In this document: piece after piece, positions 12,992-54,523 of the stretch | How positions within the stretch are numbered: position 1 is the stretch's first letter | Layout: every line of letters begins with the position of its first letter | From: Chiloscyllium plagiosum | Taxonomy: Eukaryota | Length of the DNA: 64,000 nt | Direction: 5' to 3' | Assembly: GCF_004010195.1 (NCBI RefSeq) | Contig: NC_057710.1 | Span: 105,306,338-105,370,337 of the forward strand | Notes under the pieces: generated by a model | Seen by the model: only the letters and a program-made list of their open reading frames with translations | Told to the model about the DNA's origin: nothing | The model's database searches: none | Program-made: the position numbers and the translations under genes

Positions 12992-13244
12992 GGAAAAAGT
13001 GAGGACTGCAGATGCTGGAAACCAGAGTCCAGATTAGAGAGGTGCTGGAAAAGCACAGCAGGTGAGGCAGCATCCGAGCAGCAGGAAAATCGATGTTTCA
13101 GGCAAAAGCCCTTCATCAAGAATACAGCAATCTATTATAGATAGAGCCTCTATTCCTGATGAAGGACTCTTGCCTGAAACGTCCATTTTCCTACTCTTTA
13201 GATGCCTACCTGTTGTGCTATTCCAGCACCACTCTAATCTAGAC
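12992..13244. mobile_element. Fold-back Penelope pLTR mini-insertion with hammerhead motifs on both strands
   Basis: Long inverted repeat; 14-bp TSD AATAGCCAATGTTG at 12978-12991 and 13245-13258. Confidence 0.85.
13151..13190 (+). ncRNA. Minimal type-I hammerhead ribozyme motif (PLE-type)
   Basis: TATTC-CTGATGA-AGGACTCTTGCCT-GAAAC-GTC: CUGAUGA box, stem II, GAAA box, palindromic ACGT stem III, GUC cleavage triplet; activity untested. Confidence 0.7.
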
Positions 13245-13258
13245 AATAGCCAATGTTG

Positions 13259-13380
13259 GAGAAAGTGAGGACTGCAGATGCTGGAGATCAGAGCTGAAAA
13301 ATGTGTTGTTGGAAAAGCGCAGCAGGTCAGGCAGCATCAAAGGAGCAGGAGAATCGACGTTTTGGGCATAAGCCCTTCTT
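13259..13380 (-). mobile_element. Second Penelope pLTR fragment (different subfamily), truncated within the hammerhead
   Basis: GAGAAAGTGAGGACTGCAGATGCTGGAGATCAGAGCTG...GACGTTTTGGGCATAAGCCCTTCTT, followed by another CAATGTTG at 13381-13388. Confidence 0.85.
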
Positions 13381-14409
13381 CAATGTTGTTGTGTTGTTTA
13401 AGGAAGACAATCCAGGAAATGATAAGCCAGTGAACCTTACATCAATAAAATTATTGGAGAAGATTCTTAAGTAGAGAATTTACTCACATTTGGAAAAGAA
13501 AGGACTTATTAGAGATAGTCAGCATGATTTTGTGCTGGGAAGACCTTGTCTCACAAACTCGCTTGAGATTTTTGAGGAAGTGGCACAGATGATTGCTGAG
13601 AGTAGGACAGTGGATGTTGTCTATATGGATTTTACTAGAGCATATGACAAAGTTCCTAATAGTAGGCTGGTCCAGAAGATTAAGTCACATGGATCCATGG
13701 TAGGTTGCTAAGTTGGATGCAAAATTGACTTAGTTAAAGAAGAAAGATGAGTCAATAGTCGTGAAAGGTCTTTTTCTGAATGGATGCCTGTGGCCAATGG
13801 TGTTCGGCAAGGATTCGTGCAGGGACCTTTGTAGTTTGCATTATATATAAATGATTTTTATGGAAATGTAGGTGGTCGGATGAGTATGTTTGCAGTCAAC
13901 CGCAAATTAGTAGAGTTGTGGACAGTGAGAAAGACTATTAAAGGATATAGAAGAATGAAGATCAGTTGGAAATTTGGGTGGAAAAATGGCATACGGAGTT
14001 TAATCGGATAAGTGTGAGGTGAAGTATTTTGGGAGTTTAAATGCAAGAAAAAAATATACAGTGAATGGCAGGATCGTTAGGAGCAGAGATATATAAAGGG
14101 ATCTTTGGGTCCAGAAGTGCTGTTCTGTGAAAGTGGAACTACAAATGGATAAGGTGGTAAAGGTGTATGACATGCCTGTGATCATCAGTCATGGCATTGA
14201 GTGTAAGTATTAGCAAGTCATGGTGCAGCTGAATAAGACTTTAGTTTGTCCACATTTGAAGTATATAGGAGGAATGCAAAGGCTTTGGAGAGGGTGCAAA
14301 AGAGCTTTAGCAGGACATTGCCTAGATCAGAGTGTAACAGCTATAAAGAGAGTTTGGACAAACTTAGATTGTTTTTGCTAAAGCATTGGAAACTGAGGGG
14401 TGACCTGAT

Positions 14410-14730
14410 GGGCGGCACGGTGGCACAGTGGTTAGCACTGCTGCCTCACAGCGCCAGAGACCCGGGTTCAATTCCCGACTCAGGCGACTGACTGTGTGGA
14501 GTTTGCACATTCTCCCCGTGTCTGCGTGGGTTTCCTCCGGGTGCTCCGGTTTCCTCCCACAGTCCAAAGATGTGCAGGTCAGGTGAATTGGCCATGCTAA
14601 ATTGCCCGTAGTGTTAGGTAAGGGGTAAATGTAGGGGTATGGGGTGGGTTGCGCTTCGGCGGGCCGGTGTGGACTTGTTGGGCCGAAGGGCCTGTTTCCA
14701 CACTGTAATGTAATCTAATCTAAAAAAAAA
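14410..14730 (+). mobile_element. Young full-length HE1-type tRNA-derived SINE
   Basis: A box TGGCACAGTGG, B box GGTTCAATTCC, CpG-rich body, (TAATC)n tail; near-identical to 39346-39667. Confidence 0.95.
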
Positions 14731-15609
14731 GTATGCGAGGAATGGATAAGATTGGTAGTCAGAGTCTTTTTCATAGGGTGGAAGTGTCAACAAAGAAGAG
14801 AGCATAATTTTAAGATGAGAATGAACAATTTTAAAGTAAAGGTTTTCACACAGAGGGTAGCTGCTTGGAATGCATTCCAAGGGAAGGTGGTAGAAGCTGA
14901 TACATTAACACAATTTAAGAAGCATTCAGACAGACAAGCAGGGAATACAGGGATACAGACCCAGTGCAGGCAGATTAGTTTAGAATGGCACCATCTTCAA
15001 CACAGTCATAGGGGTCCTGAAGGCCTATTCCTGTGCTGTATTATGTTTGAACTGATCCACAGACAAGGAACCATACAACACCTACCTGACAGGTGGCAAA
15101 ATGGCTTCAGGGTGGGTGTGGGTGTGGATGTGCTGGGAGCAATGTCGCCAGCACGATTCCTAATTTTTACTGTTCACTGCTTGCTGCCATCCCAGACCAT
15201 GACTCTGTCATACTGCCATGTCTGTGCCATGCTGCCACACAAGAAGGAATGCAACTGTAACCCCAGCTACTGAAAGCAGACTTCCTCTCAATAAATGTTT
15301 AAAGTCCTCTGATCTCTGTGTCAGAATGATTGAGTGACAGCATTAACTGGACCCGCAACTCTTAAATAGCACTCGGGTGGTAAATCAGGTTTTGCCCCTG
15401 TTTATCAACACAATTTGCTCACATTGTTTCTAGAACATGCATCTCTACATGTCTCCTTTTAACTAGACAGCTCTGCACTTACTGCACATGATGATAGCCA
15501 ATGTGATTATCATTTTACAAGCACTGGACTTCTACAGCAGCAATAGTTCTACAAATTGATGTTTGTGTCTTTGCTTTTTGATGCAGTATCCAGTGGGTAG
15601 AATCTGTGG

Positions 15610-16130
15610 AATCACAGGATCACAAAATCATAGAGTTGCTGAAGCACCAGAGTAGGCCATTTTACCCATCTTGCACACGATGACTCTTTGAATGATCGAT
15701 TCATTAATGCTATTCTATCTCCCTTCTCCCTATGATCCTGCACATTATTCGTTTCCCAGATAACAGTTTTATTCCCCCTTGAATGTTTGAAAAAACGCTG
15801 CCTCTAGCACACTCCCAGGTAATATATTCCATATCTCAACTATCAGTTTCATGAAAAAGATTTCATCATGAAGCATTTGCTTCTTTTATGAATGACTTTA
15901 AAACTATGCCCTCTCATTCTCAATGTTTGAACAAGTAGGAATTGTTTCTCACAATTGACTCTGTTCAGGTCCCTCATGAATTTGAACGTGTCTATCAAAT
16001 CTGTCAGATGTCTTTTCTCCAAGGAAAAGTCCTAACTTCACAAATTTATCTTCCTAATTAAAGTTCCTCATGCCTGGGAACTATGCTTGTTAATCTTTCC
16101 TGAACCAGCCTTCAATTCCTTTCTAAAATA
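15610..16130 (-). mobile_element. Old CR1 3' fragment
   Basis: Reverse of CR1 RT C-terminus and 3' UTR (CTATGCCCTCT, TATCAAATC, TTCTCCAAGGAAAA). Confidence 0.7.
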
Positions 16131-16398
16131 TCGAGCCCCTTTCTCTGCCAGTTGTCCACCAGTTCCACTAACTTGTCTGTGCCTTTTTGAAATTCAACTG
16201 AATCCTCCTCACAGTTCACAATGCTTCCAAGATCAACTTGTAAAGGTTCAGCTGACATTCAAATTTTTTTGATACATTTTTCTAACTGCTAAGCTTCAGA
16301 ATAATGTCCTAATTAACAACATAGTGGCTTGAGTAATCTTAAAATGTAAACTGCACATTAGAGGGACATCTTTGCTTAAATAGCCAGTGCTTATTCGA

Positions 16399-16718
16399 GA
16401 TTAGATTTGCTACAGTATGGAAACAGGCCCTTCAGCCCAACACCAACCCTCCAAAGAGTAGCCCACCCAGACCCATTCCCCAACCCTACATTTATCCATG
16501 ACTAATGCACTTAACACTATGGGCAATTTAATATGGCCAATTCACCTAACCTGCACATCTTTGGATTGTGGGAGGAAACCAGAGCACCCAGAGGAAACCC
16601 AGGCAGACATGGGGAGAATGTGCCAACTCCACACATTTGAGTCGCTCGAGGCTGAAATCAAACCCGGGTCCCTCCGCTGTGAGGCAGCAGTGCTAACCAC
16701 TGAGGCACCGTGCCGCCC
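16399..16718 (-). mobile_element. HE1-type SINE, moderately diverged
   Basis: Aligns end to end with 39346-39667 including the GATTAGATT tail. Confidence 0.9.
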
Positions 16719-16882
16719 CAAGATTGATGAGTAACTGAAACTCATAGGTGATATTCGTGACAATCATTATTTGCAAAGGATTGAAAAATAAGCTAACAAA
16801 TCTACTACTTGAATATTGCCCTCAATATTCCAATTTAAAAAAGAGTTGTTGGAGCAGAGTAGACAGGAGACTGTGTTGAGAC

Positions 16883-17126
16883 TGAAATAACTTCACAGGG
16901 GCTGGTATGCCCTTACCGAGCCACCCTTTAACCCTTTATTCATATGTGGAGAGTCTTTGACACTGATCCAGCTTCCTCAGAGTCAGCTGTCAGAGTGAAC
17001 AGAACCTCTGACACTTCTGTTCTTATCTGTCAGCCAGGGATCCCTGATTGGAACAGCTTAACAGTCCTAATCAGGGAATTTATATTCTATGATATCCACC
17101 TGGTTGACCTCATTACAATAATTACA
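16883..17126 (-). mobile_element. Solo LTR
   Basis: TG...CA termini (TGAAAT/ATTACA), 5-bp TSD GAGAC at 16878-16882 and 17127-17131, AATAAA on the minus strand near the 3' end. Confidence 0.8.
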
Positions 17127-17379
17127 GAGACCGCGTGGAATCTGACTCCATGGGAATTGCCCAGCAAATGAAAGGTTCCAGTGGACAATGCCCCTGCATT
17201 TAGAACTCTTAAAAAGAATCCCTTAAAGTCACAGAACTCACTGAAGCGAATAGTTACCAGAAAAAAAGTTATGAGATTAAAACTGTATTCTAACTCCTGG
17301 TTAACTATTAAACTGATACAATTCAGCACACCACTGATATTTGCCCACTGGTTTATGTCAGGTATAGACAGAAGGAACT

Positions 17380-17680
17380 GGGTGAATCCCTAGGAAATCA
17401 TAAGGGTAGCAGCAGTATACTCAAGAAGGAAATCAGGACATAGCTTTGGCAGATAGAATTATGAAGAATTGAAAGGGATTCTACAAATAGATTAAGAACA
17501 AAAGAATAACTAGAGAGAGAACAAGGCCCCTTAAAAGTTAGCAAGGCCATCTATGTGTGGAACCGTAGGCGAAGGGGGAGATATTAAACAAGTATTTCAC
17601 ATCAGTGTTTTGCTGTGGAGAAGGCTATGGAAGCTAGAGATTTGGGAAAATACATAGTGATGTCTTGAAAAGTGTCATTT
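17380..17680 (+). mobile_element. CR1 ORF2 internal fragment (between APE and RT)
   Basis: Aligns with 46430-46730 (GGCCCCTTAAA, TGTGTGGAACC, GTATTTCACATCAGTG). Confidence 0.75.
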
Positions 17681-18418
17681 TCTTTCTCTCTTATTTTACT
17701 AACCTCTTGTCGAAGAGCTCAGTCACAGCAATGGCATCAGTGATTCTATCAGTGGCAGCAAGTAGGCCCAATTCATGGCAGTCGGTAAGTGGGCCCAGCG
17801 CAGACTTGAGTGAGTCCAGCAGTATGCATGGTGGCAGCGTCGGAGGAGATTTTGGGTTCCCAGCTGCTTCTGCATCAACAAGGCAGTCCAAGATCCCACT
17901 CATGGCTACGAGGGCAGAAGCAGGTTTGTGTTTCTGAGAGCATCGACATCCAACACGGAGGCAGTGATGGAGGTGGGTTTGATCCCAGTGCGAGACTCAG
18001 TGACATCAGCAGCAGCTATATTGGCGAGGTGGGCCTGAAATGGACTCATGGTGTCGGCCGAGTCAAGCTTGGGCTGGTATGGTACCTGGAGGCATCTACA
18101 TTAGAGAAGGGCAGTGAGGACTCATCGTAGTGAGGGCTTTGGTGGAGGTGAGATGATGCCAAAGAATGGCACTTACATTCCAGCAATGGTGCATGGCAAA
18201 GGGGACTCGGCTAGGCCCATGGCCCATAGCAGACAACTTACCACTAAGGACTGCAAAGCTGAATGCTTCCCTTTATTTCTTTATTTTTCCTCTTTTATAT
18301 TTTGGTTTATTTTTCTGAGTCTTAAGAAGGCACTGGAGAATGGCAACACTGTACAGCCCCTTTTTTCTGTATTTTGTAACAAGATACATATAACAATAAA
18401 TAAATCAAATCAAATAAA
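17681..18418 (+). mobile_element. Putative non-autonomous retroelement with a Rex1-like 3' tail
   Basis: GC-richer, internally repetitive body ending in CTGTATTTTGTAACAAGATACATATAACAATAAA-(TCAAA)n; same tail on the minus strand at 31881-31931. Confidence 0.5.
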
Positions 18419-18420
18419 TG

Positions 18421-19020
18421 CAGTGGCTATATGAGCAGGTCAAAGGCTGGGAACACAGCAGCAAGTAACTCAACTCTTGATTCCTCAAAGCCTGTCCACC
18501 AGACATAAGGCAGGAGTGTAATGGAATACTTCCCACTTGCCTGGATGGCTGCAGCTCCAGCAACACTCAAGAAACTTGATACCATCCAGGACAAAGCAAC
18601 CTACTTGACTGACCACATGCACAAGCATCCATTCCCTCCACCCATACTCAGTGGTAGAAGTGAGCATTATCTTCAAAATACACAGCAGAAATTCACAAAA
18701 AGATTCTTAGACAGTGACTTCCAAACCCATGAACACTTTTATCTGGAAGGACAAAGGCAGCAGATACATGGGAACACCACCGACTGCAAGTTACCCTCCA
18801 AGCCCCTCATTATTCTGACTTGAAAATATATCATCGTTCCTTCACAGTCACTGGTCAAAATTCTGGTATTTCCTCTCTTAAGAGCATTGTGAGTTTACCT
18901 AGACCATACTAACTGTAGGGATACAAGAAGGCAGCTCACCAACATCTTCTCAAGGGCAACTAGGGACAGACAATAAATGCTGGCCAGCCAACAATGCCCA
19001 TGCCCCATGAGTGAATGTGT
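18421..19020 (+). mobile_element. LINE 3' fragment (CR1/L2-group, distinct from the main CR1 family)
   Basis: 'VMEYFPLAWMAAAPATLKKLDTIQDKA' is a non-LTR RT C-terminal motif; related fragment on the minus strand near 31200-31400. Confidence 0.75.
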
Positions 19021-19796
19021 TTTTTCTAAATAGTAGTCTAAGTGCACTATAGTTTCCTGGCTACATGGTAATCTAACCATCTAGCATGCTACCCACTTGG
19101 CACTCTACTTACCTAATGCCTTCACTACTTGGCACCCTAACCACACACTTACCTTCTATACTTACCCTTTCACAAAAGCTGTCAAAGTGACTGGCTACGC
19201 TGCTCGATATTCAATCTCAGAAATTGGCTCATTGACTGCAATAAAAGGAAGAATGGTTTCTGTGGTCATCACCTTTGCAGGATTCATGGGTTCCCTGGAC
19301 AAGTTCTTAACAAAAGGATCCTGTCCAGGAACCTCCAGCAAAATGAAGATACCTGGAAGTAAGTTGGTATGTTTCAATCCAATTGGTTCGGAAATGAGGT
19401 TTGGAAGACTGATTGGAATATCTGAGCCAATGTCGCAGGTAAAGGGTTTGGGAGAATGGACCATTTGCCAAGCATAGATTGAATTGATTCACTACCTGGA
19501 TGATATCATTCAGATAATCAGGGATGGTCAAAACTTTACATTGTGAATGATCAAGTGCAAAGAGTGAAGGTGATTCACCGTCTTCTGTGGGTGAAAATAA
19601 ATGCCTGTTAAAGGACGTTACACCTGTCTAATCAGGAAGACGTTTGGATGCACCAGATGCTGGTTAGAATCTAACATTACCAAACCAAAGATATTGGGCC
19701 TGCCAGGACAGAACACTTTGTTTTACCAGGTAAGACAGTCAATAGAGGCTATAAACCATGGTCATGTGTTGCATTGTATTGATCACAACCATACAA

Positions 19797-20198
19797 GTCA
19801 TAGTCATAGAGTCACAGAGATGTACAACACCGAAACAGACCCTTCGGTCTAACCCGTCCATGCCGACCAGTTATCCCAACCCAATCTAGTCCCACCTGCC
19901 AGCACCCGGCACATATCCCTCCATAACCTTCCTATTCATATACTCATCCAAATGTCTTTTAAATGTTGCAATTGTACCAGCTTCCATCACTTCCTCTGGC
20001 AGCTCATTCCATACATGCACACCCTCTGTGTGAAAAGGTTGCCCCTTAGGTCCCTTTTATATCTTTCCCCTCTCATCCTAAACCTATGCCCTCTAGTTCT
20101 GGACTCCCCCAACCCAGGGAAAAGACTTTGTCTATTTATCCTATCCATGCCCCTCATAATTTTGGAAACCTCTATATGGACACCCCTCAGCCTCCGAG
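19797..20198 (-). mobile_element. CR1 3' fragment, relatively young
   Basis: ORF 19987..20205(-) 'RRLRG..IEV.KIMRGMDR...RTRGHRF..RGNLFTQRV'; (GACTCTAT)-type tail; GTCATA at both flanks. Confidence 0.9.
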
Positions 20199-21699
20199 GG
20201 GTCATAAAGGCCTTCTATCGCTCATTGGTATCAGCTTGGATACCTTACAATCAAAGTGTCTGAAACATTTCATTTTCATCATAACTTGTTGATATTCCAG
20301 GCCTACACCTCAATGCCAATTAACTCATTTTGGTGCAGGGCAAAGTTTGTAGTAATGTAAAAACACTTTTTCCGCTCAGTGCTGTAAATTAAAATTCAAG
20401 TCTTTGTAGCATGTAGCCTGAATGGTTTCTGGGCAGAACCTATATTCTTTTATCTACTAAAGTAGAGGAGATTACATGGTGAGGTGTAATAGAATTTGGT
20501 AAGCTGCAGTTCCATAACAATGGCTCTCTGCTTGATCACAAGCTGCCGTGGAAGTGCAGACAGAGGAGGCTTGTATCTGAATTGAATGGGTTGACCCATC
20601 GATCTGTTCCAAACAATTTGAGTGACTTGTTAAATCCTGTTGGCAGTCATTAATTTTCATCTTTTTTTTGTTGGAGCCAGAAGGAAAGAGTCCATTATAT
20701 GTGGCAGCAGAGTTAAAAAAGCTTCACTATTGTTGCAGCTTCCCATAAATGCAATAGCAGAGGTGTTGTTTTATGGTTGTACTTTTGCATGTTTTTCTAT
20801 ATGTGTGTTATGCAGTGTCCTGCGTTTTAGATCTTGCTCAGCCTAATTCTATTGTGATCTTAATGTGGTACATTACAGATCAATATTGATTTTTCTCTCA
20901 TGGCTATGACAATATTATCCAATTTCTGAGATAAATTCATATCTACTCATTTCTCCATGACCATGATTCAACATAATTCAATTGACCTCAAGGCTATTTC
21001 TCAATAAAATCAGTGTAAGAAGCACTACATTGACCTTTTTAAGTCACTTTACTTGACAGCTTTTATGGCTGATTAATTAAAAGACCTTGAAATTGATGCT
21101 TCAGGATATATTAATTTTGAAAAATATGTGGGTCCAGTTGGTTTATTGACTCCATTTAAAAACTAGCTATTCAAAATTTGCTAAGGCAGGGAATATTATT
21201 TCCCACAGTAATAAAAGTTAATAAAAATGGAATAAGGGTAATAATATCACTTCATAATACAATGAATCCACCCTTTGTGTATGTATGAGAAAGGTTGAAA
21301 TAAATATGTCAAAGTTTCTGTCACCTGCCTAGCTGCTGATTGAATGGCTCCAGGCTGTTTTGATGACATTTCAGTTGTGAGATGCTTCATTTGAAGCTGA
21401 GGAGTTCTACTTTAAAATTTTAGCTTTAATGCATGCCAGTTACCAAATGTCAAATCATAATAGCGAGGCGTTTGGAAATTTATTTTTAACCTTCTTGTAG
21501 TAGAGACTGATGTTGCAGCCTTTTATGCTGTTAACAAATTGCTCTTATCTGAAACATATGGATCTTACTATTCACAGAGACAAAAATCATTGGAGTAAAG
21601 GAATGATGTATTAGCTAATATGTGATTCGACATCAGAGGGAGGGGGATACATCAAATACTGTTTTAACAACAAAATAATTGACACCATTGCTCCTTTCA

Positions 21700-21950
21700 T
21701 GGATCTACTTCTCAGGGCAAGGCTTTAACCAGTTATGATTAACATGCATGTTTTAAATTGTAACACAAGTCCAGCAATTAACTGTCAAGCATCATTAACT
21801 GATGCATTGTCCATAGTAACACCTCAACCAATCAAAGTACATTTGCTAACCAGTCACAACTGTTCATATAAATTAAATATGTTGCTTTTCTTCATAAATT
21901 GATATTCTTGTCCTTGTAAGTACAAGATAAAAAGTTTCAATAAAGTGTGT
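21700..21950 (+). repeat. Old dispersed repeat related to 44480-44706 (candidate PLE pLTR)
   Basis: Shared CAGTTAACT..CATCA.TAACT.GATGCATT and CAATCA.AGT.CATTT..AACCA blocks; hammerhead position decayed. Confidence 0.55.
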
Positions 21951-23184
21951 CCTTTTTGAGCAAGGTTTAAGCTCCGTACTGTCACAGATGAATTCGCTAG
22001 AGACTGTATAAAATTTGAATGCATGGTATGTGAAGTTATCAGACAATTTTCATTTGACAGAGGATTTGGCATTGGTACAGGCAGCCCAATTTATTATGCA
22101 GGCAAAAATTAAAGCCTAACATCAGTCATTCTGCAAGGAAACAAAAAGAATTCTTCTGACATGATCAGATGGGTAGGCCCTGAGATGGCATCGTTGTCCG
22201 CTCAAAATCCTGCCTGACTGCAAGAACAGTGTGAATTAATATAATCAATGTAAGTTGTAAGAGATGTGGTTCCAAACAGAATCAAAGTGCAATGAATGCC
22301 CAACAGGGGAAAACAAGGGCTGTCAGTGTGGCCAGTCAGACTCTTCAGAAAATATTGTAAGTTAACAGAACCTCCTTTGCTTCAAAAACAAAGAAAACTT
22401 CAGGCAAACAAAAAACTTCCAGTGAAGTTGGAATTATGCAGAAATAAGATATATAAAAACATCAAAGTTACTGACCGATAGTTTCTAAAGAACAACGTAC
22501 AGTGTTCCCAGGGGAAGTGAAAGGGAGTTGAAACAGATTCTGGATCATCAGCATAAAAGTACAAATTTTTAAATGAATTTCAACTCCAGAGAGGAATAGG
22601 TTTCTCAATACTGGCAGACAGACTGCCATAGTTAGACATTCTGCAAGTCAGAGCAGAAAACAGAGAACTGCAATGTCCAGGCAACACCAGTCCATGGACA
22701 AACCACAATGAAACTTTGATGAAATGTTAGTGGAAGCTCTTTGGGCTGAATCACCTGGCGTTTTTGCTGAGCCCAAGTCATGTTGGGTTTGGTGGAGTGA
22801 TTCTCACTCTAAGGCTGTGCAGGTTTTCTGGCTGTATCTAACTAAATTCACCATATTAATTGGGTTTTAAGCCATTGATTTCAGCCCCATTTTACTGCAC
22901 AGTGTTTCTAGAACACCATGCCATTCACTGGATATTCCAGAACTCACCACTCACAATGGTATAAAAGACCTACACAATCTTTTAAAGGGCAATGCCAGTT
23001 CAGAACTGCCCTGCATAATTCATCACATTGGCCTGGCCTGAAGTAAAGAAGGTTCTGTTAACTTGCAATATTTTCTGAAGGGTCTGACTGGCCATACTAA
23101 TAGCCCTTGCTTCACCTGTTGGACATTCATTGCACTTGTGATTCTATTTGGAATGACAACTCTTACAACTTACATTGATGGGGG

Positions 23185-23380
23185 AAGCTGAGGTCCTAGA
23201 GATCTTGCAAGATGGGATAGAGCTAAGGTGGCCACCCTCTTCCCCTCGAAAACAGCAATGGAAGTCATGATTCTAGACCAGGCTAGCACACTCCAAGATC
23301 AGTACCCAGCTTAAAGAACTCTCTTTTCATCTGAAGCCGTACAACAAAATTAAATGACTTTCTCCATTCTGCTCGGGTAA
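23185..23380 (+). pseudogene. Harbinger-type Myb/SANT-like ORF remnant
   Basis: 'VLEILQDGIE../TLFP...K.NDFLHSAR' followed by GTAA; parallels 43085-43282. Confidence 0.5.
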
Positions 23381-23489
23381 TTTCAACAAAATTCAATCAG
23401 AAACCTCACACTCACTCAATCTCTGCTACTACATCCATCTCCTTCCAAGGCTCTCGCTCCAACATTCTCACTATTGGAACTTAGGAATG

Positions 23490-24390
23490 TAGGACATTGG
23501 AATATAAGAACAGGAGTAGGCCATTCAACTCTTCGAGCCCATTCTCCCATTTAATGAGATCATAGATGACCTGTGGCCTAACTTCATATACCTGCCTTTG
23601 GCCCATAGCTCTTCATACTTTTGTTTAGCAAAAGCTTATCTATCTCAGATTTAAAATTAACAACTGATACAGCATCCATCAATATTTGTGGCTGAGAGGT
23701 CTAAATATCTACCACCTTTGTGTGTAGATGTGTTTTGTAACATCTCTCTTGAATGGTTGTGCCCTAATTCTCAGACTGTGCCCCTTTGTTTGAGAATCCC
23801 AGACCAGTGGAAATAGTTTACCTTTATCTACCCTGTCTTTACCTATTAAACCCTTGAAATCTTTGATCATATCATCCAATATCCATTTAAATTCTCGTGA
23901 AAACAGGTCTATTTCATATAACCTCCTCACATAACTTAATTCCTGAAATTCAAGTATCATTCCTGTAAACCTACATTGGACTTCCTCCAAGACCAAAACC
24001 TTTCTAAGGTATGGTGCTCAAATCTGCCCGCAACACACCAAATAGAGGAAGGTGAGGACTGCAGATCAGATTCAAACAGTGTGTTGCTGGAAAAACACAG
24101 CATGTCAGGCAGCATCTGAGGAGCTGGAAAGTTGATGTTTCAGGCTGAAGCCCTTCATCACAGTTCCTCGGATGCTGCCTGACATGCTGTACTTTTCCAG
24201 TGCCACACTTATCAACCAAATAAGATCTAACCAGGGTTTTGTAGAACTGTGCCTTCATACTCCAGTCCTCTTGATATAAAGTCTGGCATTTCATTAGCTT
24301 TCGTCATTATTTTTCATGCCTGTTTATGACATTTTAAAGATCTAAACACCCGAATCCCCAAGTTTCTTTCGGCATCCACTCTATTTTGCT
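23490..24390 (-). mobile_element. CR1 3' part (continues at 25380-25945)
   Basis: ORF 23709..23996(-) 'LEEVQCRFTGMI...GHSLRIR..FKRDV...TQR'. Confidence 0.85.
24045..24214. mobile_element. Fold-back Penelope pLTR mini-insertion
   Basis: Same fixed end GGTGAGGACTGCAGAT; minus-strand TGATGAAGGGCTTCAGCCTGAAACATC; inverted arm; TSD ACCAAATA at 24037-24044 and 24215-24222. Confidence 0.85.
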
Positions 24391-24404
24391 TCATGTTTAA
24401 CTGT

Positions 24405-30383: not shown

Positions 30384-30443
30384 NNNNNNNNNNNNNNNNN
30401 NNNNNNNNNNNNNNNNNNNNNNNNNNNNNNNNNNNNNNNNNNN
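30384..30443. other. Assembly gap
   Basis: Run of N. Confidence 1.
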
Positions 30444-30487
30444 AGCTGCCTGACCTGCTGTGCTTTTCCAGCACCACAGTCTCAACT
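30444..30487 (+). mobile_element. Penelope pLTR fragment abutting the gap
   Basis: GCTGCCTGACCTGCTGTGCTTTTCCAGCACCAC matches 39863-39895. Confidence 0.8.
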
Positions 30488-31681
30488 GATAGAATTATCA
30501 GGTGTTTTTGTGTGTTGGTCCAAGCAGTGCAGCGTAGGTTCACGAGGTCAATTCCTGGATTACGCTGAAAGACTGGACTGACTGGACTTGTGTACCCTTG
30601 AGTTTAGAAGACTGAGAGGGGATCTGATTGAGACATGTAAGATTATTAAAGGATTGGACACTCTGGAGGCAGGAAACATGTTTCCGCTGATGGGTGAGTG
30701 CCGAACCAGAGGACACAGCTTAAAAATACGGGGTAGACCATTTAGGACAGAGCTCAGGAGAAACTTCTTCACCCAGAGAGTGGTGACTGTGTGGAATGCT
30801 CTGCCTCAGAGGGCAGTGGAGGCCCAGTCTCTGGATTCATTTAAGAAAGACAAAGATAGTGGAATCAAGGGTTATGGAAATAAGGCAGGAAGAGGATACT
30901 AATTAGGAATGATCAGCCATGATCATATTAAATGGCGGTGCAGGCTCGAGAGGCTGAATGGCCTACTCCTGCACCTATTGTCTATTGTCTATTGTCTAAA
31001 ATTATAAAGGTTAGCATAACTTTGAGGCACCTTGCACCTCTTAATGTAGAGATGAATTGTAGTTGCAAGACGTGCCTGGAGGCCAATTCCAAGCTGTGCT
31101 ACTTTTGAACAGAGGCTGAGCATGTGATAGACAGAGAGAAAGAGAGCATCACAGTTCTCATATGCTGTCCTGGTGTGTAAGTGGTGAAATGAGTGACTGT
31201 TGAAAGTGATGAATATGGTGCAATCAAGTGGGCTGCTATTTCCTGGGAGCTAAGCCTCTTGAATGTTATTGAAGCAGTACCATCCAAACATGTGCACTGC
31301 ATCATATTTTTGACCTATGGCTTTTAGATAAACTGGCATTGAAGGAAATAGAAGTTACGTCACTCATCACAAAATTCTAAGCCTCTGATCAGCTCTTGCA
31401 ATCAATCACCCTGTCAACAATTACCCTAACATCAGTCGAATATAAGAACACTGAGTACTCTGTCATTACTTGTACGTAGTGATGTTCTGAAAAAATGACT
31501 GCAAATATGTATAACGTTACACATTCAATGGATGTAAATCATTAAAATCGGCCTTGTCCAGTACTTTTGGTAGACATTCCTCTGAGCACCAAAGGGAGCT
31601 GATGACTGAACCAGCCAATGAAATTCATCAGTGGGCTGCCTCATGAAGACATTTTTGGCTCTGCCAAGGTATTTGTGTACT

Positions 31682-39345: not shown

Positions 39346-39667
39346 GATTAGATTAGATTAGATTACTTACAGTGTGGAAACAGGCCCTTCGGCCCAACAA
39401 GTCCACACCGACCCGCCGAAGCGCAACCCACCCATACCCCTACACGTACCCCTTTTTACCTAACACTACGGGCAATTTAGCATGGCCAATTCACCTGACC
39501 TGCACATCTTTGGACTGTGGGAGGAAACCGGAGCACCCGGAGGAAACCCACGCAGACACGGGGAGAATGTGCAAACTCCACACAGTCAGTCGCCTGAGTC
39601 GGGAATTGAACCCGGGTCTCTGGCGCTGTGAGGCAGCAGTGCTAACCACTGTGCCACCGTGCCGCCC
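39346..39667 (-). mobile_element. Young full-length HE1-type SINE
   Basis: Near-identical reverse complement of 14410-14722, (GATTA)n tail. Confidence 0.95.
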
Positions 39668-39820
39668 ACCAATCTAAGGATCTAAGGAAGAAATTTTTTT
39701 CACTCAGAGGGTGATAGAAAGATGAACATGCTGCCTGAGAGGGTGGTAGAGACAGATATTATCACACTTAAAAAGCAGCTAGCTGATCACTTAAAACGTC
39801 AGGATGCAGTAGGCTATGGA

Positions 39821-39940
39821 TCGAGAGTGTGTGGTGCTGGAAGATTCTCCTGCTCCTCGGACGCTGCCTGACCTGCTGTGCTTTTCCAGCACCACACTCT
39901 CGACTCTGATCTCCAACATCTGCAGTCCTCACTTTCTCAT
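39821..39940 (+). mobile_element. Penelope pLTR mini-insertion with a short 5' inverted arm
   Basis: TSD AGTAGGCTATGGA/AGTAGGCTCTGGA at 39808-39820 and 39941-39953; fixed end GCAGTCCTCACTTTCTC. Confidence 0.85.
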
Positions 39941-44479: not shown

Positions 44480-44706
44480 CTGCGCTAAAACTCAGGTAAA
44501 AAGCTTGGCAGTTAACTATCATTCATCAATAACTGGATGCATTCTTCATGAGAATTCCACTCCCCAAACAAATCAGAGTCCATTTCTCAACCAATTGGCA
44601 TTCTTCTCTCATATGATGTAAGTGTTGTTTGCACTTGACATTGGTATTATTTGTGAATCGTCCTGATGAATGCAAGATTGAAAGCTACAAAACATATTTT
44701 TTTCAG
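44480..44706 (+). repeat. Dispersed repeat ending in a hammerhead-like core
   Basis: TCGTC-CTGATGA-ATGCAAGATT-GAAA-GCTA at 44658-44687; related to 21700-21950. Confidence 0.5.
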
Positions 44707-45294: not shown

Positions 45295-47039
45295 ATTACT
45301 CCCGGTGCTATGAGCTAGTGAGGGCAGGAATAGGAGGTTAGAGCAGATGAATGCATGGCTGAGGAGCTGGTGCACGGGAGAAGGATTCACATTTTTGGAT
45401 CACTGGAATCTCTTTTGGGGCGGAAGTGATCTGTACAAGAAGGATGGATTACATTTAAATTGGAAGGGGACTAATATACTGGCAGGGAGATTAGTAAGAA
45501 CTGGTCAGGAGGATTTAAACTAGCTAGGTGGGGAGGTAGGATCCAGGGAGATAGTGAGAAAAGAGATCAATCTGAGACTGATACAGTTGAGAATAGAAGC
45601 AAATCGAACAGTCAGAGCAGGCAGGCTCAAAGCAGAGAACAAGGTTGGACTGATAAATTAAACTGCACTTATTTCAATGCAAGAGGCCTAACAGGGAAGG
45701 CAGATGAACTCAGGGCATGGTGAGGAAATACATCCAGGGAAGTTGTTTGGGTGGAACTGAGAAATAAGAAAGGGATGATCACCTTATTGGGATTGTATTA
45801 TAGACCCCCTAATAGTCAGGGGGAAATTGAGAAACAAATTTGTAAGGAGATCTCAGTTACCTGTAAGACTAATAGGGTAGTTATGGTAGGGGATTTTAAC
45901 TTTTCAAACATAGATATTGTGTTAAGGATTTAGATGGAATGGAATTTGTTAAGTGTCTACAAGAAAATTTTCTGATTCAGTATGTGGATGTACCTAGTAG
46001 AGAAGGTGCAAAACTTGACCTACTCTTGGGAAATAAGGCAGGGCAGGTGACTGAGGTATCAGTGGGGGAGCACTTTGGGGCCAGCGACCATAATTCTATT
46101 AATTTTTAAAATAGTGATGGAAAAGGATAGACCAGATTTAAAAGTTGAAGTTCTAAATTGGAGGAAGGCCAATTTTGATGGTATTAGGCAAGAACTTTCA
46201 AAAGCTGATTGGGCGCAGATGTTTGCAGGTAAAGGGACAGCTGGAAAATGGAAAGTCTACAGAAATGAGATAACAAGAGTCCAGAGAAAGTATATTCCTG
46301 TTAGGGTGAAAGGAAAGGCTGGTAGGTGTATGGAATGCTGGATGACTAAAGAAATTGAGGGTTTGGTTAAGAAAAAGAAGGAAGCATATGTCGGGTATAG
46401 ACAGGATAGATCAAGTGAATCCTGAGAAGACTATAAAAGTAGATGTATACGTAAGAGAGAAATCAGGAGGGCAAAAAGGGGACATGAGATAGCTTTGGCA
46501 AATACAGTTAAGGAGAATCCAAAGGGTTTTTACAAATACATTAAGGACAAAAGGGTAACGATGGAGAGAATAGGGCCCCTCAAAGATCAACAAGGCAGCC
46601 TTTGTATGGAGCCACAGGAGTTGGGGCAGATACTAAGCGAGTATTTTGCATCAGTATTTATTGTGGAAAAGGACATCGAAGATATAGAATACAGGGAAAT
46701 AGATGGTGACAGATTGAAAAATGTCCATATCACAGAGGAGGAAGTGCTGGATGTCTTGAAACGCATATAAGGGGATAAATACCGAGGACCTAATCAGGTG
46801 TACCCTAGACCTCTGTGGGAAGCTAGGGAAGCTAGGGGCCTCTTACTGAGATATATGTATCATCGATAGTCACAAGTGAGGTGCCAGAAGACTAGAGGTT
46901 GGCTAACGTGGTGCCAGTATTTAAGAAAGGTGGTAAGGACAAGCCAGGGAACTATAGACCAGTGAACCTGACGTCGGTGGTGGGCAAGTTATTGGAGGGA
47001 ATCCTGAGGGACAGGATGTACATGTATTTGGAAAGGCAA
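45295..47039 (+). mobile_element. CR1 LINE: ORF1 end, APE (internal deletion), start of RT
   Basis: 'GLYYRPPN...MVGDFN', ORFs 46075 and 46495, 'ANVVPVFKKG..PGNYRPVNLTS'. Confidence 0.92.
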
Positions 47040-47714
47040 NNNNNNNNNNNNNNNNNNNNNNNNNNNNNNNNNNNNNNNNNNNNNNNNNNNNNNNNNNNNN
47101 NNNNNNNNNNNNNNNNNNNNNNNNNNNNNNNNNNNNNNNNNNNNNNNNNNNNNNNNNNNNNNNNNNNNNNNNNNNNNNNNNNNNNNNNNNNNNNNNNNNN
47201 NNNNNNNNNNNNNNNNNNNNNNNNNNNNNNNNNNNNNNNNNNNNNNNNNNNNNNNNNNNNNNNNNNNNNNNNNNNNNNNNNNNNNNNNNNNNNNNNNNNN
47301 NNNNNNNNNNNNNNNNNNNNNNNNNNNNNNNNNNNNNNNNNNNNNNNNNNNNNNNNNNNNNNNNNNNNNNNNNNNNNNNNNNNNNNNNNNNNNNNNNNNN
47401 NNNNNNNNNNNNNNNNNNNNNNNNNNNNNNNNNNNNNNNNNNNNNNNNNNNNNNNNNNNNNNNNNNNNNNNNNNNNNNNNNNNNNNNNNNNNNNNNNNNN
47501 NNNNNNNNNNNNNNNNNNNNNNNNNNNNNNNNNNNNNNNNNNNNNNNNNNNNNNNNNNNNNNNNNNNNNNNNNNNNNNNNNNNNNNNNNNNNNNNNNNNN
47601 NNNNNNNNNNNNNNNNNNNNNNNNNNNNNNNNNNNNNNNNNNNNNNNNNNNNNNNNNNNNNNNNNNNNNNNNNNNNNNNNNNNNNNNNNNNNNNNNNNNN
47701 NNNNNNNNNNNNNN
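47040..47714. other. Assembly gap
   Basis: Run of N. Confidence 1.
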
Positions 47715-48485
47715 CCTCTCCCTATAGCTCAAATCCTCCAACCTTGGCAACATCCTTGTAAATCTTTTCTGAACCCTTTCAAGTTTCACAACATCTTTCC
47801 GATAGGAAGGAAACCAGAATTGCACGTAATATTCCAACAGTTGCCTAACCAATGTCCTGTACAGCTGCAACATGACCTCCCAACTCCCGTACTCAATACT
47901 CTGACCAATAAAAGAAAGCATACCAAACTTACTAACTGTACCTCTTATGCTCACATCCAAATCTTTTATGTAAATGACAAAAAGTAGTGGACCCAGCACT
48001 GATCTTTGTGGCACTAAATGCGAATTGCTGCATTTTGGGAAAGCAAATATTAGCAGGACTTACACACTTAATGGTAAGCTCCTGGGGAATGTTGCTGAAC
48101 AAAGAGACCTTGGAGTACAGGTTCATTGCTCTTTGAAAGTGGAGTCGCGGGTAGATAGGATAGTGAAGAAGGCGTTTGGTATGCTTTCCAGGCAACCAGC
48201 ATAGGTTTAGGGTGAGAGGGGGAAGATATAAAAGAGACCCAAGAGGCAACATTTTCACTCAGAGGGTGGTAAGTGTATGGAATGAGCTGCCAGAGGAAGC
48301 TGGTGGAGGCTAGTACAACTGCAACATTTAAAAGGCATTTGGATAGATATGAATAAGAAGTGTTTGGAGGGATATGGGCCAGGTGCTGGCAGGTGGGACT
48401 AGATTGGGTTGGGATATCTGGTCGGTATAGATGGGTTGGACTGAAGAGTCTGTTCCTGTGCTGTACATCTCTATGACTCTTGTGA
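47715..48485. mobile_element. Rearranged CR1 3' region (minus 47715-48014, plus 48015-48485)
   Basis: RT C-terminal segments on opposite strands; (GACTCT)-type tail at ~48470. Confidence 0.85.
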
Positions 48486-48853
48486 CTCTAATATTTAGAT
48501 GCAACCTTAGTGCTGCATCCTTCCCAGAATCTATGAGGTTCTTTTCAATTGCATTATTTGGATTACCTGAATTTGAGTCAAGCAAAGCGTGTTTTCTTGT
48601 ATTTGCTATTGGGCATGTCTACACATATTATATGCATTCAGTAAGCTTCACACAATCAGGAAGGAGAGTTCATGTCTGCAGTGAGACACAACCTGAGTGA
48701 GTATACAGTTCAGGGAGTTTAGAGGCAGCGTGGGCTTTCGGTGCAGAGGGAAAGAGATGGGTTTTGCTTGCTTTTTTGGCTCATAGTTTGAGAGTTTTTT
48801 TTTAACAGGATAAATTGAAGTCCAAGATCAGGGGTCCAGCACAAGTGTGATAT

Positions 48854-49532
48854 TATTATGAAGATGTGGGTGTACTGTATCTTTAAGTAAGTTAAACGTT
48901 GGTAGAGCTACTTGACAGCACTAAGTGTTCTCAGTAAGGGAGCAATGCAACACTTGGTTGAAAGCTAAATTAGCTGGTTGCCTAGAAATGACAAAACAGA
49001 GTTGAATTAGGCCAATCAGTTTAAATTATACCCCAAAAAATATCAAACTCCAATCCAGTTTGAATTGAGTATATTGACAATCTTAAAAGCCAATGACAGA
49101 ATCTAATGCTATGGTGGGTATAATACTCAGGAAAATTGAACAGTTGGGAGGAGAACTGCCCAGCTACCAGCATGTAAAAAGACTGCCTGAAAAATAGCTC
49201 TCTTAAAAGTACCTTTATCAATCAGTAACCTGTGAGGCAGAATCCCAAGGAAGAAGAAATGAAGACCCTGGAAGATCTAAATAGAAGAACCGAAAGCTGC
49301 CTGGTTTAGAGATAAGAAGCTTTGTTTTGTAAATCTCAATTGGGAGTTTTATCGGACTAGTATTGTGGAAGGGAAAAGTAAACGATAGGTTAGTGTATGG
49401 AGTTGTAAATAGTTGTTAGTTAATTATTCTCTGTTATACTTTATGAAATAAAGTTGTTAATTTTTACTTTAAATAATTCTTGGTCTCTTGAATTTTCACA
49501 GATTACTGCACAGGATAAATCTTTTCTGTGTT
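48854..49532 (+). repeat. 5' LTR (last ~45 bp missing relative to the 3' LTR)
   Basis: Aligns to 54713 onward up to AATCTTTTCTGTGTT; AATAAA at ~49447. Confidence 0.9.
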
Positions 49533-49558
49533 TGGGGCCTTGGGTCCATGATTTGAAC
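49533..49558 (+). promoter_or_regulatory. Degenerate primer-binding site, tRNA-Pro-like
   Basis: TGGGGCCTTGGGTCCATGATTTGAAC vs tRNA-Pro complement TGGGGGCTCGTCCGGGATTTGAAC. Confidence 0.65.
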
Positions 49559-49689
49559 TGGTTTAGACAGATTTGAATAGATTTGGGGACTGAAAAATCC
49601 TTGCAGATTTAAACACTTGCAGGTTAGTGTCTTAGATGTTGAAATAAAATGTAGGTGAGACAATTTGTTTAATTTTGGTGACTTGTGGT

Positions 49690-50900
49690 TGATTAAATTA
49701 AAAGTGACAGAAATAGCTCTTAAAATTGCAAAAGAGGTTCTGAGATTTGAAGATGATTCTCAATTTTGCCAAGAAAGTTTACAAGGTAAGAAAAAGGCCA
49801 TACTTTTAGAATTAGCAAATAAGTTAGATTTGGGTTTAACCAAGGACAAAATAAAGCTGAAATTGTCAGGGAATTACTAAAACACTTAGGAGTGTCAGAG
49901 AAACAGACAAGTACAATAGAGGTAGAAAAACTTAAATTACAATTGAAGAAAATGGAGTTAGAAGATAAACAAAGGGAGAGAGAAAGGGAGAGAGAAGAGA
50001 GGAAGAGAGAGAAAAAGAGAGAAGGGTCTTGGCTGAACAAAGAGAGAGAAGAAAGGGAAAGAGAAAGAGAGAGAGAGAAGAAAAAGAGAGAAAGTTCTTA
50101 GCTGAGCAAAAAGAGAGAGAATTTGAACTTGAGAAGTTGTGACTTAGTCAGCAAAGTCAAGTTAACAGGATGGAGATTAAAAGAGAAGGTAGTGATATAT
50201 ATATAAATATGTAAAAGCTCTGCCACATTTTGATGGGAAAGATGTTGAAGCTTTCTTTATTAAATTTGAAAAATTGGTTAGGCAGATGGAGTGATCCAAG
50301 GGTTTATGGGTAATGCTAGTTCAGACTAAACTGGTAGGCAGAGCTAGTGAGGTATTTTCCGTGCTGTCAGATGAGGTGTCAAGGGATTATGAAGAGGTTA
50401 AACAGGGTATTTTAAGTGCGTATGAATTGGTACCAGAAGCATTTAGACAGCGGTTCAGAAACACAAAGAAGGAACCAGGTCAGACTTATGTTGAGTTTGA
50501 AAGAATTAAACACAGTCATTTTGATCTCTGGCTGTGTGCGTTGAATATAGATAGGACATTTGAGGCTCTAAGAGAGATTATTCTGCTTGAGGAGTTTAAA
50601 AACTCACTTCCAGAAATGATAAGAATTCACATGGAGGAACAGGAAGTTCAGGAAGTGAGAAGGGCAGCAGAATTAGCAGATGAGTACATGTTGGTGCATG
50701 AGACAAGCTTCTGGCCAGAAGTTAGTCCTGTGAGGGATAGAAGTTGGGAGAAGGGGAGATTGTACATCACTAAACCAAGGGTAGACAGCACTGGTAAGAT
50801 TTTACCACAGGATAAAAAAGAAACTCAAGAGGGTTGAAAGGAGGTGAAAGGCCTCAGGTGTTCCCACTGTGGTAAAGTGGGACATGTAAAAACACAATGC
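49690..50900 (+). pseudogene. gag: gag: E/R/K coiled-coil, SCAN-like capsid domain, CCHC zinc knuckle
   Basis: 'YELVPEAFRQRFR...LREIILLEEFKNSLP...AAELADEY'; CSHCGKVGHVKTQC at 50859-50900. Confidence 0.85.
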
Positions 50901-51059
50901 TGGTCATTAAAGCAAGGCACTGTGGGAAAAGATGGGGTAAAAGAAGCTAAGCCAGTGGCATTAGTGAAGGTAGTGAAGGAGACCCCAAGAAGAGCCGAGG
51001 AGCTGCAGGAGAGTGCACAGCCCAGACAGGGGCTGGGTATGGAGTTAGTACCTGATCTC

Positions 51060-54000
51060 TACAAAGAATTCACCTCTGAGTGTAAAGTTTACTCAGAAAG
51101 AACAGAGGGAAAAGGACAAGAAGTTATATTTTTGAGAGATACAGGATCTAACCAGTCTGTCATAGTAAGGGATGAGCGAGTATGCACTCTTTCTGATCTG
51201 TTACCAGAGAGTGTGGTAATTTGTGGGATAGATGGACAGAAATTTAGCATTCCACTATGTAAAATCAGGTTGGAGTCCAAACTCAAGACTGGGGAAGTTA
51301 CAGTGGGAGTGATTGATAGAATGTCAGTTCCAGGAATTCAGTTTGTTCTTGGGAATGATTTGGCAGGATCCAAGATGGGAGTGATACCCCTTGTTGTGGA
51401 GAAGCCAAGAAAGATCAAGAAACTGAGGAGTTAAAACAGAAATATCCTGGTACTTTCCCAGACTGTATGGTAACCAGGTCCCACTATCATAAGCCACCAC
51501 ACGAAGCAAAAGGTAAAGAGAAAGATGAAGGAGTTGAGGTTCAGTTAGAGGATACCATGCTTGAGGTAATGGTGCAGGAAAATCCTAAACAGGCAGAGGA
51601 TCAGACAGAAGTGTTAAGTCCCGAAAGGTGAAGAGACTTGCAACAGCAAGACAAGATGATAAAAGATATATATGTGGATGCGTACTCTGAAAAGGAGGCA
51701 GAGAATATTCTGGAGGGTCATTATCTGCAAGATAGAATCCTAAGATGGAAATGGAGACCACGGCAGGTTAGTGCAGAGGAGAAATGGGCCAAAGTGCACC
51801 AGATTGTGTTGCTGGTAACATACAGACAGGAGGTATTACAGGTTGCACGTGAACTACCTGTAGGAGGTCACCTCGGGGTACGAAAGACTCAGGCTAAGGT
51901 ACAAAAATATGTTTTATTGGCCTGGAATGCACAAGGATGTGGTTAACTTTTGTCGTACATGTTATTCATGCCAAATGGTAGGTAAGTCACAGGCAGTAAT
52001 AAACCCAGCACCTTTGTTGTCAATTCCTATGTTTGAAGAACCTTTCATGTGGGTTATAATTGATTATGTAGGTCCCCTCACGAGAACTAAAACTGAGAAC
52101 CAGTACTTGTTAACCATATTTCTGGAGGCAATTCCATTACAGAGTATCGAGGCAAAAATGGTGGTTGAGGAGTTAGTAGCTTTCTTCACACGGTATGGGC
52201 TACCCAAAGAGATTCCGTTGAACCAAGGATCAAATTTTACTGCTCGGCTGTTTAAGGAGGTTATGTATAGTTTAGGTATACAGCACTTTAAATCCAGTGC
52301 GTATCATCCTGAATCCCAGGGAGCTTTAGAAAGGTGGCATCAGACCTTGAAGATCATGTTAAGAGCAGGATTACCTGAATAATTGGGATAAAAGTATCCC
52401 ATTCATATTGTTTGCCATTAGAGATGCCCCAAATGAATCTACTTAGTTCATTCCCTTTGAGTTCATATTCGGTCATGAATATTGGCCCTTTAAAATTAAT
52501 TAAAGAAAATTGACAGGACCAAAGTTGGAGATCTCACACTTAGATTATGAATCAGAGGTGTGAGAGAGATTACACCAAGTAAGTGAGTTTGCTAAACAGC
52601 ACCTAAAGAGGGGACAGTGTAGAATGAAGCAGCTGGAAGATAAAAGCTCTGAGACTTGAACATTTTCCTGAGGGGATAACGTGTTAGTACTGTTACCAAT
52701 GATAGGAGATCCCTTCAAAGCCAGTTCATGGTCCCTATTAATTTGGGAAAAAAGTTGAGTCAGGTGAACTTTTTAGTAACGATGCCTGATAGAAAAAAAA
52801 GGCAAAGAGTATGTCATGTGAACATGTTGAAACCAAATTATACTAGAGAAGGAACCTGAGAAATAAGTGTTAGTTACTGCCCTGCAGAGGGAGGAATCAA
52901 ATCCAGATGATGTGGATTTTGAGGTGCCTCAAAATAGATTTAAAAATGAAGAGGTCCTTGAGGAGTGCAGTAGGTTAGTAAGCTATCTGTCTCAGGAGCA
53001 GAGAACACAGTTGAAAGATTTGTTACTGTAGTACAAGGACATATGTAAGAATCAGATGGGGAGGACTAATGCTATTGTACATGGAGTAGACGTAGGGAAT
53101 ACTGCTCCGATAAAACAACACCACTATCAGCTTAATCATTTCAAAGCCAGACAGGTCCAGATGGAGGTGGAGGCCATGCTCGACGAAGACATCATTGAAC
53201 CAAGCCAGAGCAAGTGGAATTCGCCAATCATCTTAATCAGGCGGGATTCAATGATTCTGCGTGGGTTATCGGAAGGTCAACGGCGTTACAAAATCAGACT
53301 CATGTCCAATTCCTAGATTGGAGGACTGTACTCAGAAAGTCGGACAAGCCAGCTACATCACCAAGTTGGACTTCATGTGCAGTTACTGGCAGTTACCTTT
53401 CTCAGAGTCGACAAAATAAATTTCTGTATTTGTAACCCCAAATGGGCTATATCAGTGATGCCATTTGGAATGAAGAATGCACCTGCCACATTCCAAAGAC
53501 TCATGAGCAGAGTTTTGGCTGGGTTAACAAACTCTTTGGAAAATGTAGTGATCTCTGGTAAGTCCTGGAAAGATCACATAGTACAATTGGCAGAGCTCTT
53601 TGAATGACTACAGAAAGCAAAACCAGTGATAACCTTAAATAAAAGTGAATTCACAAAAGCAGAGGTGATGTTCTTGGGACATAACATCGATCATGGAAGG
53701 TTGACTTCACAGAACACAAAGACGAAGATCATCGAGGAATTTCCATGATGAACCTCAAAGAAAGAGGTGCTTCAATTCTTAGGACTCAGCGGATTCTATC
53801 GCAAGTCAGTTCCAAACTTCAGAGCTAAAAATGTGTTACAGGAAAAGCGCAGTAGGTCAGGCAGCATTCAAGGAACAGGAGAATTGACGTTTCGGGCATA
53901 AGCCCTTCTCCTGTTCCTTGGATGCTGCCTGACCTGCTGCGCTTTTTCAGCAACACATTTTCAGCTCTGATCTCCAGCATCTGCAGTCCTCACTTTCTCC

Positions 54001-54523
54001 TGTTCCAAACTTCAGCAATGTAGTGGCACTGTTAACCGATTTGCTGAAGAAGAACACAAAGTTTCAGTGGACAGAACAATGCTAGGAGACATTCGACCAT
54101 TTGAAAGCCATATTGATGACCAAACCAGTTTTAGCTACACTAAACTTTTCAAAACCTTTTAAAGTCACCATCGATGCTAGTGACATTGGAGTTGGAGCTG
54201 TAGTCCTACAGGAAGATGAGGATGGGATTGAACTGACAGTTGGTTATTTTTCAAAGAAGATCAACATCCACCAGAGGAAATACTTCACAATCAAAAAGGG
54301 ACCATTGAGTTTGGTACTGACCTTACAGCATTTTAATGTGTATGTCATGAACAATGTGTCAGAGATGGCTGTTTACATAGATCATATTCTGCTTACATTC
54401 TTCGAACACTTTAAAGACAAGAATATGAGACTATTTCATTGGAGTCTTATGTTACAGATTTTTAATTTTAAAATCATACATTTTGCAGGTCGGAAGAATG
54501 TAATCGCAGATGTGTTATCGTAG
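51060..54523 (+). pseudogene. pol: pol in the order protease-integrase-RT-RNase H
   Basis: PR 'LRDTGS' (D at 51138); INT 'GGHLG..CRTCYSC..IIDYVGPL..QGSNF..PESQGALER' (51860-52380); RT 'PIKQ..IEPSQSKWNSP', 'MPFGMKNAPATFQR' (53056-53750); RH 'TIDASDIGVG' (54101-54523). Confidence 0.9.
53823..54001. mobile_element. Fold-back Penelope pLTR mini-insertion inside Gypsy pol
   Basis: 14-bp TSD GTTCCAAACTTCAG at 53809-53822 and 54002-54015; inverted arms; partial hammerhead on the minus strand. Confidence 0.9.

Follow-up and report, generated by a model that had tools for sequence, protein, structure and literature searches.

Within 64,000 nucleotides of the genome of Chiloscyllium plagiosum (contig NC_057710.1, positions 105,306,338 to 105,370,337 of the forward strand; hereafter the window) lie six copies of a repeat of about 130 nt, which we probably owe to insertions of the pseudo-long terminal repeat (pLTR) of a Penelope-like element (PLE), made as cDNAs that run from an internal start of reverse transcription to the capped 5′ end of the PLE mRNA. 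Throughout, unit positions are counted from the last T of the common 3′ end as 0, which places the predicted hammerhead cut between -99 and -98 and the A of a TCATTCC motif at -130; we take the sequence around the latter to be initiator-like (Inr-like).

The argument starts from where the copies begin. Seventy-one young arms were picked by their 3′ end alone, with one insertion (L148 and L149) counted twice, and 65 of them could be scored for the 5′ end after six arms ending at N gaps had been dropped; some long copies were scored at -172, making their lengths lower bounds. Thirty-two of the 65 start at the hammerhead’s 5′ border, at -121 to -134, 22 at -57 to -120 and 11 beyond -134, and the stop rate per base is 0.060 at -115 to -134, 0.004 downstream and 0.016 upstream, so that the breakpoints are as non-uniform as the original prediction, an earlier reading of the window from its letters alone, had implied. 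Starts near the predicted cut (-95 to -100) account for three of the 65 arms, and since the pile-up of 5′ ends lies about 30 nt upstream of that cut, most templates appear to have been uncleaved.

The base that precedes -130 provides the second line of evidence. Among genome-wide matches with a pyrimidine in front, A(-130) is preceded by G in 2,778 cases, by A in 950 and by T in 852, a G share of 61% of 4,580 matches versus a background of 22-25%; one base inward of -130 the counts are 762 for G and 2,144 for T (odds ratio 9.2). The extra G belongs neither to the target-site duplication (TSD) at L293, L295 and L304 nor to the inverted arm at L298 and L307, and the first three of these, which are single-arm copies joined directly to the target, likewise begin at -130. 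A local test for the cap mark in 25 arms gave G 10, A 11 and T 4; what looked like G peaks at -132 to -134 proved to be subfamily or arm sequence and was dropped. An extra G is described as a mark of capped full-length L1 insertions in the available text of PMC11702581, and a transcription start within the pLTR is given for Drosophila Penelope in that of PMC2377424. Because about half of the 5′ ends lie at the hammerhead border and the G excess stands before -130 and not inward of it, run-off of the cDNA at the cap is the reading we favor.

The arrangement of the arms indicates how such cDNAs are joined. Forty-six of the 71 young arms have an adjacent inverted arm, in keeping with the inverted pLTR layout proposed earlier, and in 44 of these the inverted arm is devoid of the last ~36 nt, the PLE tail. 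The 46 inversions comprise 42 distinct junctions, microhomology of 1-7 nt is present at 19 of the 46, and in 26 of the 46 the tail-less inverted arm extends further 5′ than the direct one. At diagnostic sites the arms match each other in 73/75 and 71/75 scorable cases, against shuffled means of 37.7 and 53.5, as scored in 106 fold-backs from all fetched loci, which are not an unbiased set; from this agreement we conclude that both arms are copied from one source, anew at each insertion. A fixed fold-back mini-element was rejected as a candidate in view of the 42 junctions in 46 under 3′-anchored sampling.

The source of the unit was found elsewhere in the genome, attached to a frame with reverse transcriptase (RT) and GIY-YIG endonuclease (EN) parts, which bears out the PLE origin proposed for the window copies. 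Among 30 loci closely related to copy B (listed below), six continue upstream into RT or EN sequence (L112, L119, L130, L131, L133 and L134), and a genome search with an RT piece returned 20,827 candidates, 150 of which were scored. At L209 an 893-codon open frame (L209:1383-4061) holds an RVT_1 domain (Pfam, 33 bits against a cut-off of 29.6, E 6e-8), then a CX4CxxC linker and, behind it, a GIY-YIG motif (21.2 bits, slightly below the cut-off of 22.6, E 3.5e-4), with its stop about 150 nt before the unit; it opens with a short N-terminal stretch duplicated several times in tandem and in frame, and is not a clean copy. The linker is of the Neptune type, as had been anticipated for the parent, a type also found in Nematis: a CX2-5CxxC linker between RT and EN is common to both, as far as the accessible text of PMC8557442 goes. 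At L164, conversely, an ATG at +37, past position 0, opens a frame, and an open reading frame (ORF)-start piece from this locus has 913 exact matches genome-wide. As the unit stands behind the RT-EN frame (L209 and others) and before the ATG frame (L164), it is, judged from sequence, the pLTR of a coding PLE, present at both ends and serving as its 3′ end and its 5′ leader, with the ATG frame presumably belonging to the same element as the RT frame. Loci with the ORF start often run from a pLTR through the ORF start to +40 to +330 and then into another pLTR that begins at about -120 to -170. Eleven of 12 long open frames that were fetched were inflated by assembly gaps, and a PDB search with the ORF gave no match.

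The family is extremely abundant. For a 46-nt piece of it the 3.56-Gb genome yields 14,276 exact matches, and for the reversed control none, which excludes a chance origin. In eight 100-kb blocks picked regardless of the family, 86 unit loci were counted over 782,237 non-N bases, a density of ~110 loci/Mb that extrapolates to ~390,000 copies genome-wide; both the very high copy number and the existence of more than one subfamily, here several, had been foreseen. An upstream family match of >200 nt accompanies 15 of the 86 loci and is absent from the other 71.

Several observations weigh against the run-off reading. The one-base-inward control count is inflated by T-side microhomology; among 30 G junctions inspected, several have the G in neither target nor arm, five would also fit an inverted arm one base longer, and in about three more the target supplies it. 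The peak is broad, -129 being as common as -130; 11 of the 65 arms run past -134, and in a sister subfamily stops at -142 to -172 are frequent, so that the starts could be scattered or partly due to a structural stall. Cut-site starts number 860 versus 300 three nt upstream, an approximately 3-fold difference, with 2-nt microhomology in many; a minor cleaved template may contribute to them. No intact copy uniting ORF start, RT and EN was recovered. Lastly, in RNA reads the unit occurs on both strands within longer host transcripts, 93-95% of the reads continuing into unlike sequence, and shows no pile of transcript starts or ends in these single-cell poly(A) reads from a related organism, the single run that gave coverage and a type of library that would miss circular RNAs; the pattern bears neither way on a start site.

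Part of this would be accommodated by ordinary 5′-truncated PLE ends, in which RT begins at the 3′ pLTR of a long transcript and, once past the hammerhead structure, stalls or dissociates, the peak being sharpened by microhomology of the two arms. The microhomology at 19 of 46 junctions, the coincidence of the -129 peak with a TTC overlap, the 11 arms that read past -134 and the heavy 5′ truncation that the available text of PMC8557442 gives as the PLE norm are all on its side. Stalling, however, predicts no G excess limited to the base before -130, the single-arm copies at L293, L295 and L304, joined directly to the target, start at -130, and predicted folding shows no strong structure there. 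We regard this explanation as unlikely, but as one to be taken seriously.

The six window copies fit the same scheme of direct and inverted arms. All were confirmed where the original prediction had placed them (12992, 13259, 24045, 30444, 39821 and 53823), and BLAST with a family member found no seventh in the window. They are 76-97% identical to a young family copy, and none encodes a protein. The arms are as follows:

12992..13123, minus strand: copy A, direct arm; older subfamily, CTGATGA type, 81% identical to the young copy
13143..13244, plus strand: copy A, inverted tail-less arm; about -134 to -35
13259..13382, minus strand: copy B, single direct arm; -125 to -1; young, 97%
24045..24160, minus strand: copy C, direct arm; -125 to 0; 76% identical to the young copy
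24164..24214, plus strand: copy C, inverted tail-less arm; about -88 to -37
30444..30490, plus strand: copy D, tail-less piece; about -79 to -35
39821..39842, minus strand: copy E, short inverted arm; about -57 to -36, read directly
39843..39940, plus strand: copy E, direct arm; starts at -98, the first base past the predicted cut
53823..53909, minus strand: copy F, inverted tail-less arm; about -122 to -35
53906..54001, plus strand: copy F, direct arm; -96 to 0, the arms joined via a 4-nt overlap

The direct arm of copy A spans -130 to -1 of the unit, tail included. An inverted partial arm is present in four copies, as had been reported (12992, 24045, 39821 and 53823), and missing from copy 13259, and TSDs likewise flank five of the six, with a measured range of 8-15 bp: 15 bp, exact, for copy A (12978-12992/13245-13259), 8 bp for copy B (13251-13258/13381-13388), 8 bp for copy C (24037-24044/24215-24222), 13 bp with one mismatch for copy E (39808-39820/39941-39953) and 14 bp for copy F (53809-53822/54002-54015). 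Copy D, probably an inverted arm, adjoins a 60-N assembly gap (30384-30443) that hides the rest of the insertion.

Some observations touch on target choice. Copy B, which is young, sits inside the right TSD of the old copy A and in the same orientation, one target site having received both; insertion into an already duplicated site suggests a target preference. At L118, L119 and L130 three separate, differently built insertions occupy one position of a CR1-like long interspersed nuclear element. The first bases of the TSDs often match the element’s continuation, a hint of short primer-template pairing.

To call the window copies hammerhead-bearing, as was done originally, overstates their state: core and helices are intact together in none of the six, and the motif as it was given, CTGATGAAGGGC..GCCCGAAACGTC, is complete in none. 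Two copies are without a hammerhead, three have lost C3 or more, and one has an intact core with damaged helices. In copy A the core of the direct arm is mutated (C3>T, GTC>ATC), and the inverted arm keeps the core with helices I and II damaged; copy B is without C3 and also carries G12>A, copy C is without C3 and has GTC>ATC, copy F is without CUGA, no hammerhead is visible in copy D, and copy E, beginning at the predicted cut site, has none. An Rfam scan gave no hammerhead family match, the only matches being sub-threshold microRNA ones on hairpins. In the wider family, 269 cores show the conserved core, helix II and a palindromic helix III, with loop II differing among subfamilies and helix II and core constant. 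Helix I has 4 bp in one subfamily and is mismatched in the main one, for which monomer and dimer folding yield a lowest-energy form other than the full hammerhead. At 44663-44690 the window also holds an isolated CTGATGA...GAAA motif outside this PLE family, possibly the end of another.

A non-coding, hammerhead-processed RNA moved in trans by PLE protein, whether retrozyme-like or a fixed fold-back mini-element, has also to be considered as the template. The junction of copy F recurs in 40/40 scored loci, cut-site starts are in small excess and copy E starts exactly at the cut site, a 224-bp tandem has one identical junction at three loci, and animal retrozymes stem from pLTRs according to the available text of bioRxiv 10.64898/2026.07.22.740005. 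The 40-locus agreement, however, arises because the query itself selected that junction, with its 4-nt overlap, and the set comprises at least three sequence variants with matching arms. Furthermore, the copies occur as scattered monomers, their 46 inversions showing 42 junctions, most arms hold 32 nt upstream of the cut that would be missing from cleaved RNA, cut-site junctions of the kind expected from circles are not seen, and an intact ribozyme is present in 0/6 window copies. This alternative is largely refuted for the window copies and, as a general account, highly improbable; the self-spreading, ribozyme-processed non-coding unit of the original prediction is accordingly not supported, the unit being the parent’s own pLTR and 5′ leader, inserted as monomers with individual junctions. 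Least probable of all, with barely any likelihood left to it, is a snap-back origin of the fold-back, in which a single cDNA, or an antisense template, primes itself in place of two primings: it is proposed for rotifer PLEs in the accessible text of PMC3846280 and would explain why the arms carry the same variants and why palindromic junctions are common, but in 26 of 46 cases the tail-less arm has sequence further 5′ than the tailed cDNA could supply, a tail-less cDNA cannot supply the tail, and the antisense-template version leaves the G at -131 unexplained.

The 224-bp unit itself (-142 to +80) is a head-to-tail arrangement with a hammerhead and an identical junction at L259/L260 (C1:16163033), L263/L264 (C1:26522085) and L433 (C2:128770220), and belongs to a subfamily whose helix I has 4 bp and which carries AATAAA downstream. 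It may be a young retrozyme-like array or reflect a shared master copy. L434 and L435 are other short tandems.

Returning to run-off at the cap, we propose the following sequence of events. Transcription would start at about -130, which would make the hammerhead the first ~40 nt of the mRNA, and the RT-EN protein would cut both target strands with a stagger of 8-15 bp, priming taking place near 0 for one strand and near -36 for the other. Each cDNA would run off at the cap, often with a C added opposite it, and trimming of the cDNA ends and their joining, through microhomology or the addition of a few bases, would then give a fold-back; a single priming would leave a single-arm copy. Long copies would result when RT starts in the downstream pLTR of a longer transcript, and a second pLTR after the ORF start would fit a jump of RT to another template at the mRNA 5′ end. 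Hammerhead cleavage would not be required for insertion. With somewhat less assurance, we lean toward the wider view that most of the ~390,000 copies are untruncated, complete run-off cDNAs of the leader, and that RT jumps at the 5′ end regenerate pLTRs and start retrozyme-like arrays.

If this is correct, the genome records PLE transcription starts through the copied cap G, so that they can be mapped from DNA alone, and internal two-site priming is at work in a vertebrate germline, providing genomic support for an internal initiation so far shown in vitro for one element. The hammerhead would sit uncut at the extreme 5′ end of the template, arguing that ribozyme cleavage lies off the main insertion path, and the scheme would bear on pLTR regeneration, termed an open question in the available text of PMC2377424. 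Element type, hammerhead and inverted arrangement have all been described before; the reason for the dominance of pLTR-only stubs may be new, and no paper describing cap-marked PLE stubs was found in the open-access literature, supplements being outside the search.

Other repeats in the window provide context for the copies. Judged by its short and long interspersed elements, the host would be a cartilaginous fish. Copy F lies in the pol region of a decayed LTR retroelement (48923-55383) with ~600-bp LTRs about 90% alike and Pfam matches to SCAN, zinc knuckle and integrase, which presumably resembles SCAN-bearing Gmr1-like Gypsy elements. Two copies of a tRNA-derived short interspersed nuclear element, at 14406-14708 and 39367-39671 in opposite orientation, are 100% alike over 216 nt and represent a very young subfamily, which we assume to be HE1-like.

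Comparison with known systems, cited here from the parts of the respective texts available, places the family closest to endonuclease-positive PLEs. Insertions of the latter feature an inverted pLTR, a 30-40 bp tail and solo pLTRs (PMC3846280, PMC8557442), and the present family shares with them the frame of RT then GIY-YIG, the terminal repeat, the inverted 5′ arm without the ~36-nt, one-ended tail, TSDs of ~8-15 bp, pLTRs running into the ORF-start region and partial tandems. Unlike in the described PLEs, pLTR-only stubs dominate here (71/86 loci), with TSDs, a 5′ pile-up and an extra G, whereas the TSD-less solo pLTRs of rotifers were ascribed to recombination or deletion (PMC3846280). The anole element PAc (Poseidon; Frangieh et al. 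2024) provides a mechanistic parallel: in vitro, its protein extends both target strands from a pair of neighboring internal sites close to the ORF start, and its hammerhead mutants insert normally (PMC11167929), so that in both systems two adjacent RT start sites bound the tail and the hammerhead is dispensable, as proposed here. The PAc start sites nevertheless lie 111-118 nt inside the ORF and those proposed here upstream of the ATG, PAc belongs to the Penelope/Poseidon clade whereas the present parent has a Neptune/Nematis linker, and the 5′ ends of genomic copies are not treated in the PAc main text (PMC11167929).

The ribozyme resembles the minimal type I PLE hammerheads of PMC4209133 in its CUGANGA, the unpaired base before helix II, the G-C closing pair, GAAAC-GUC without loop 3 (a dimer being needed), the short helix I and an occurrence mostly singly or in opposite-strand pairs; it differs in a helix II of 4 bp versus 7-8, in the helix I U-U mismatch of the main subfamily and in the decay of the window copies. 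Animal non-LTR retrozymes are likewise short, non-coding and pLTR-related with a type I hammerhead, and are defined by head-to-tail tandems with a hammerhead in each and by linear or circular monomer RNAs (PMC7229834; bioRxiv 10.64898/2026.07.22.740005). The window copies, unlike these, are head-to-head monomers with broken cores, the window contains no tandem arrangement of the unit, and the ends are not set by the cut site (3/65). Twin priming of L1 is similar in that two primings are joined by microhomology and complete 5′ ends carry an extra G (PMC11702581); in L1, however, neighboring stretches of the RNA are copied into the two cDNAs, whereas here the same ~95 nt are copied twice from fixed internal starts.

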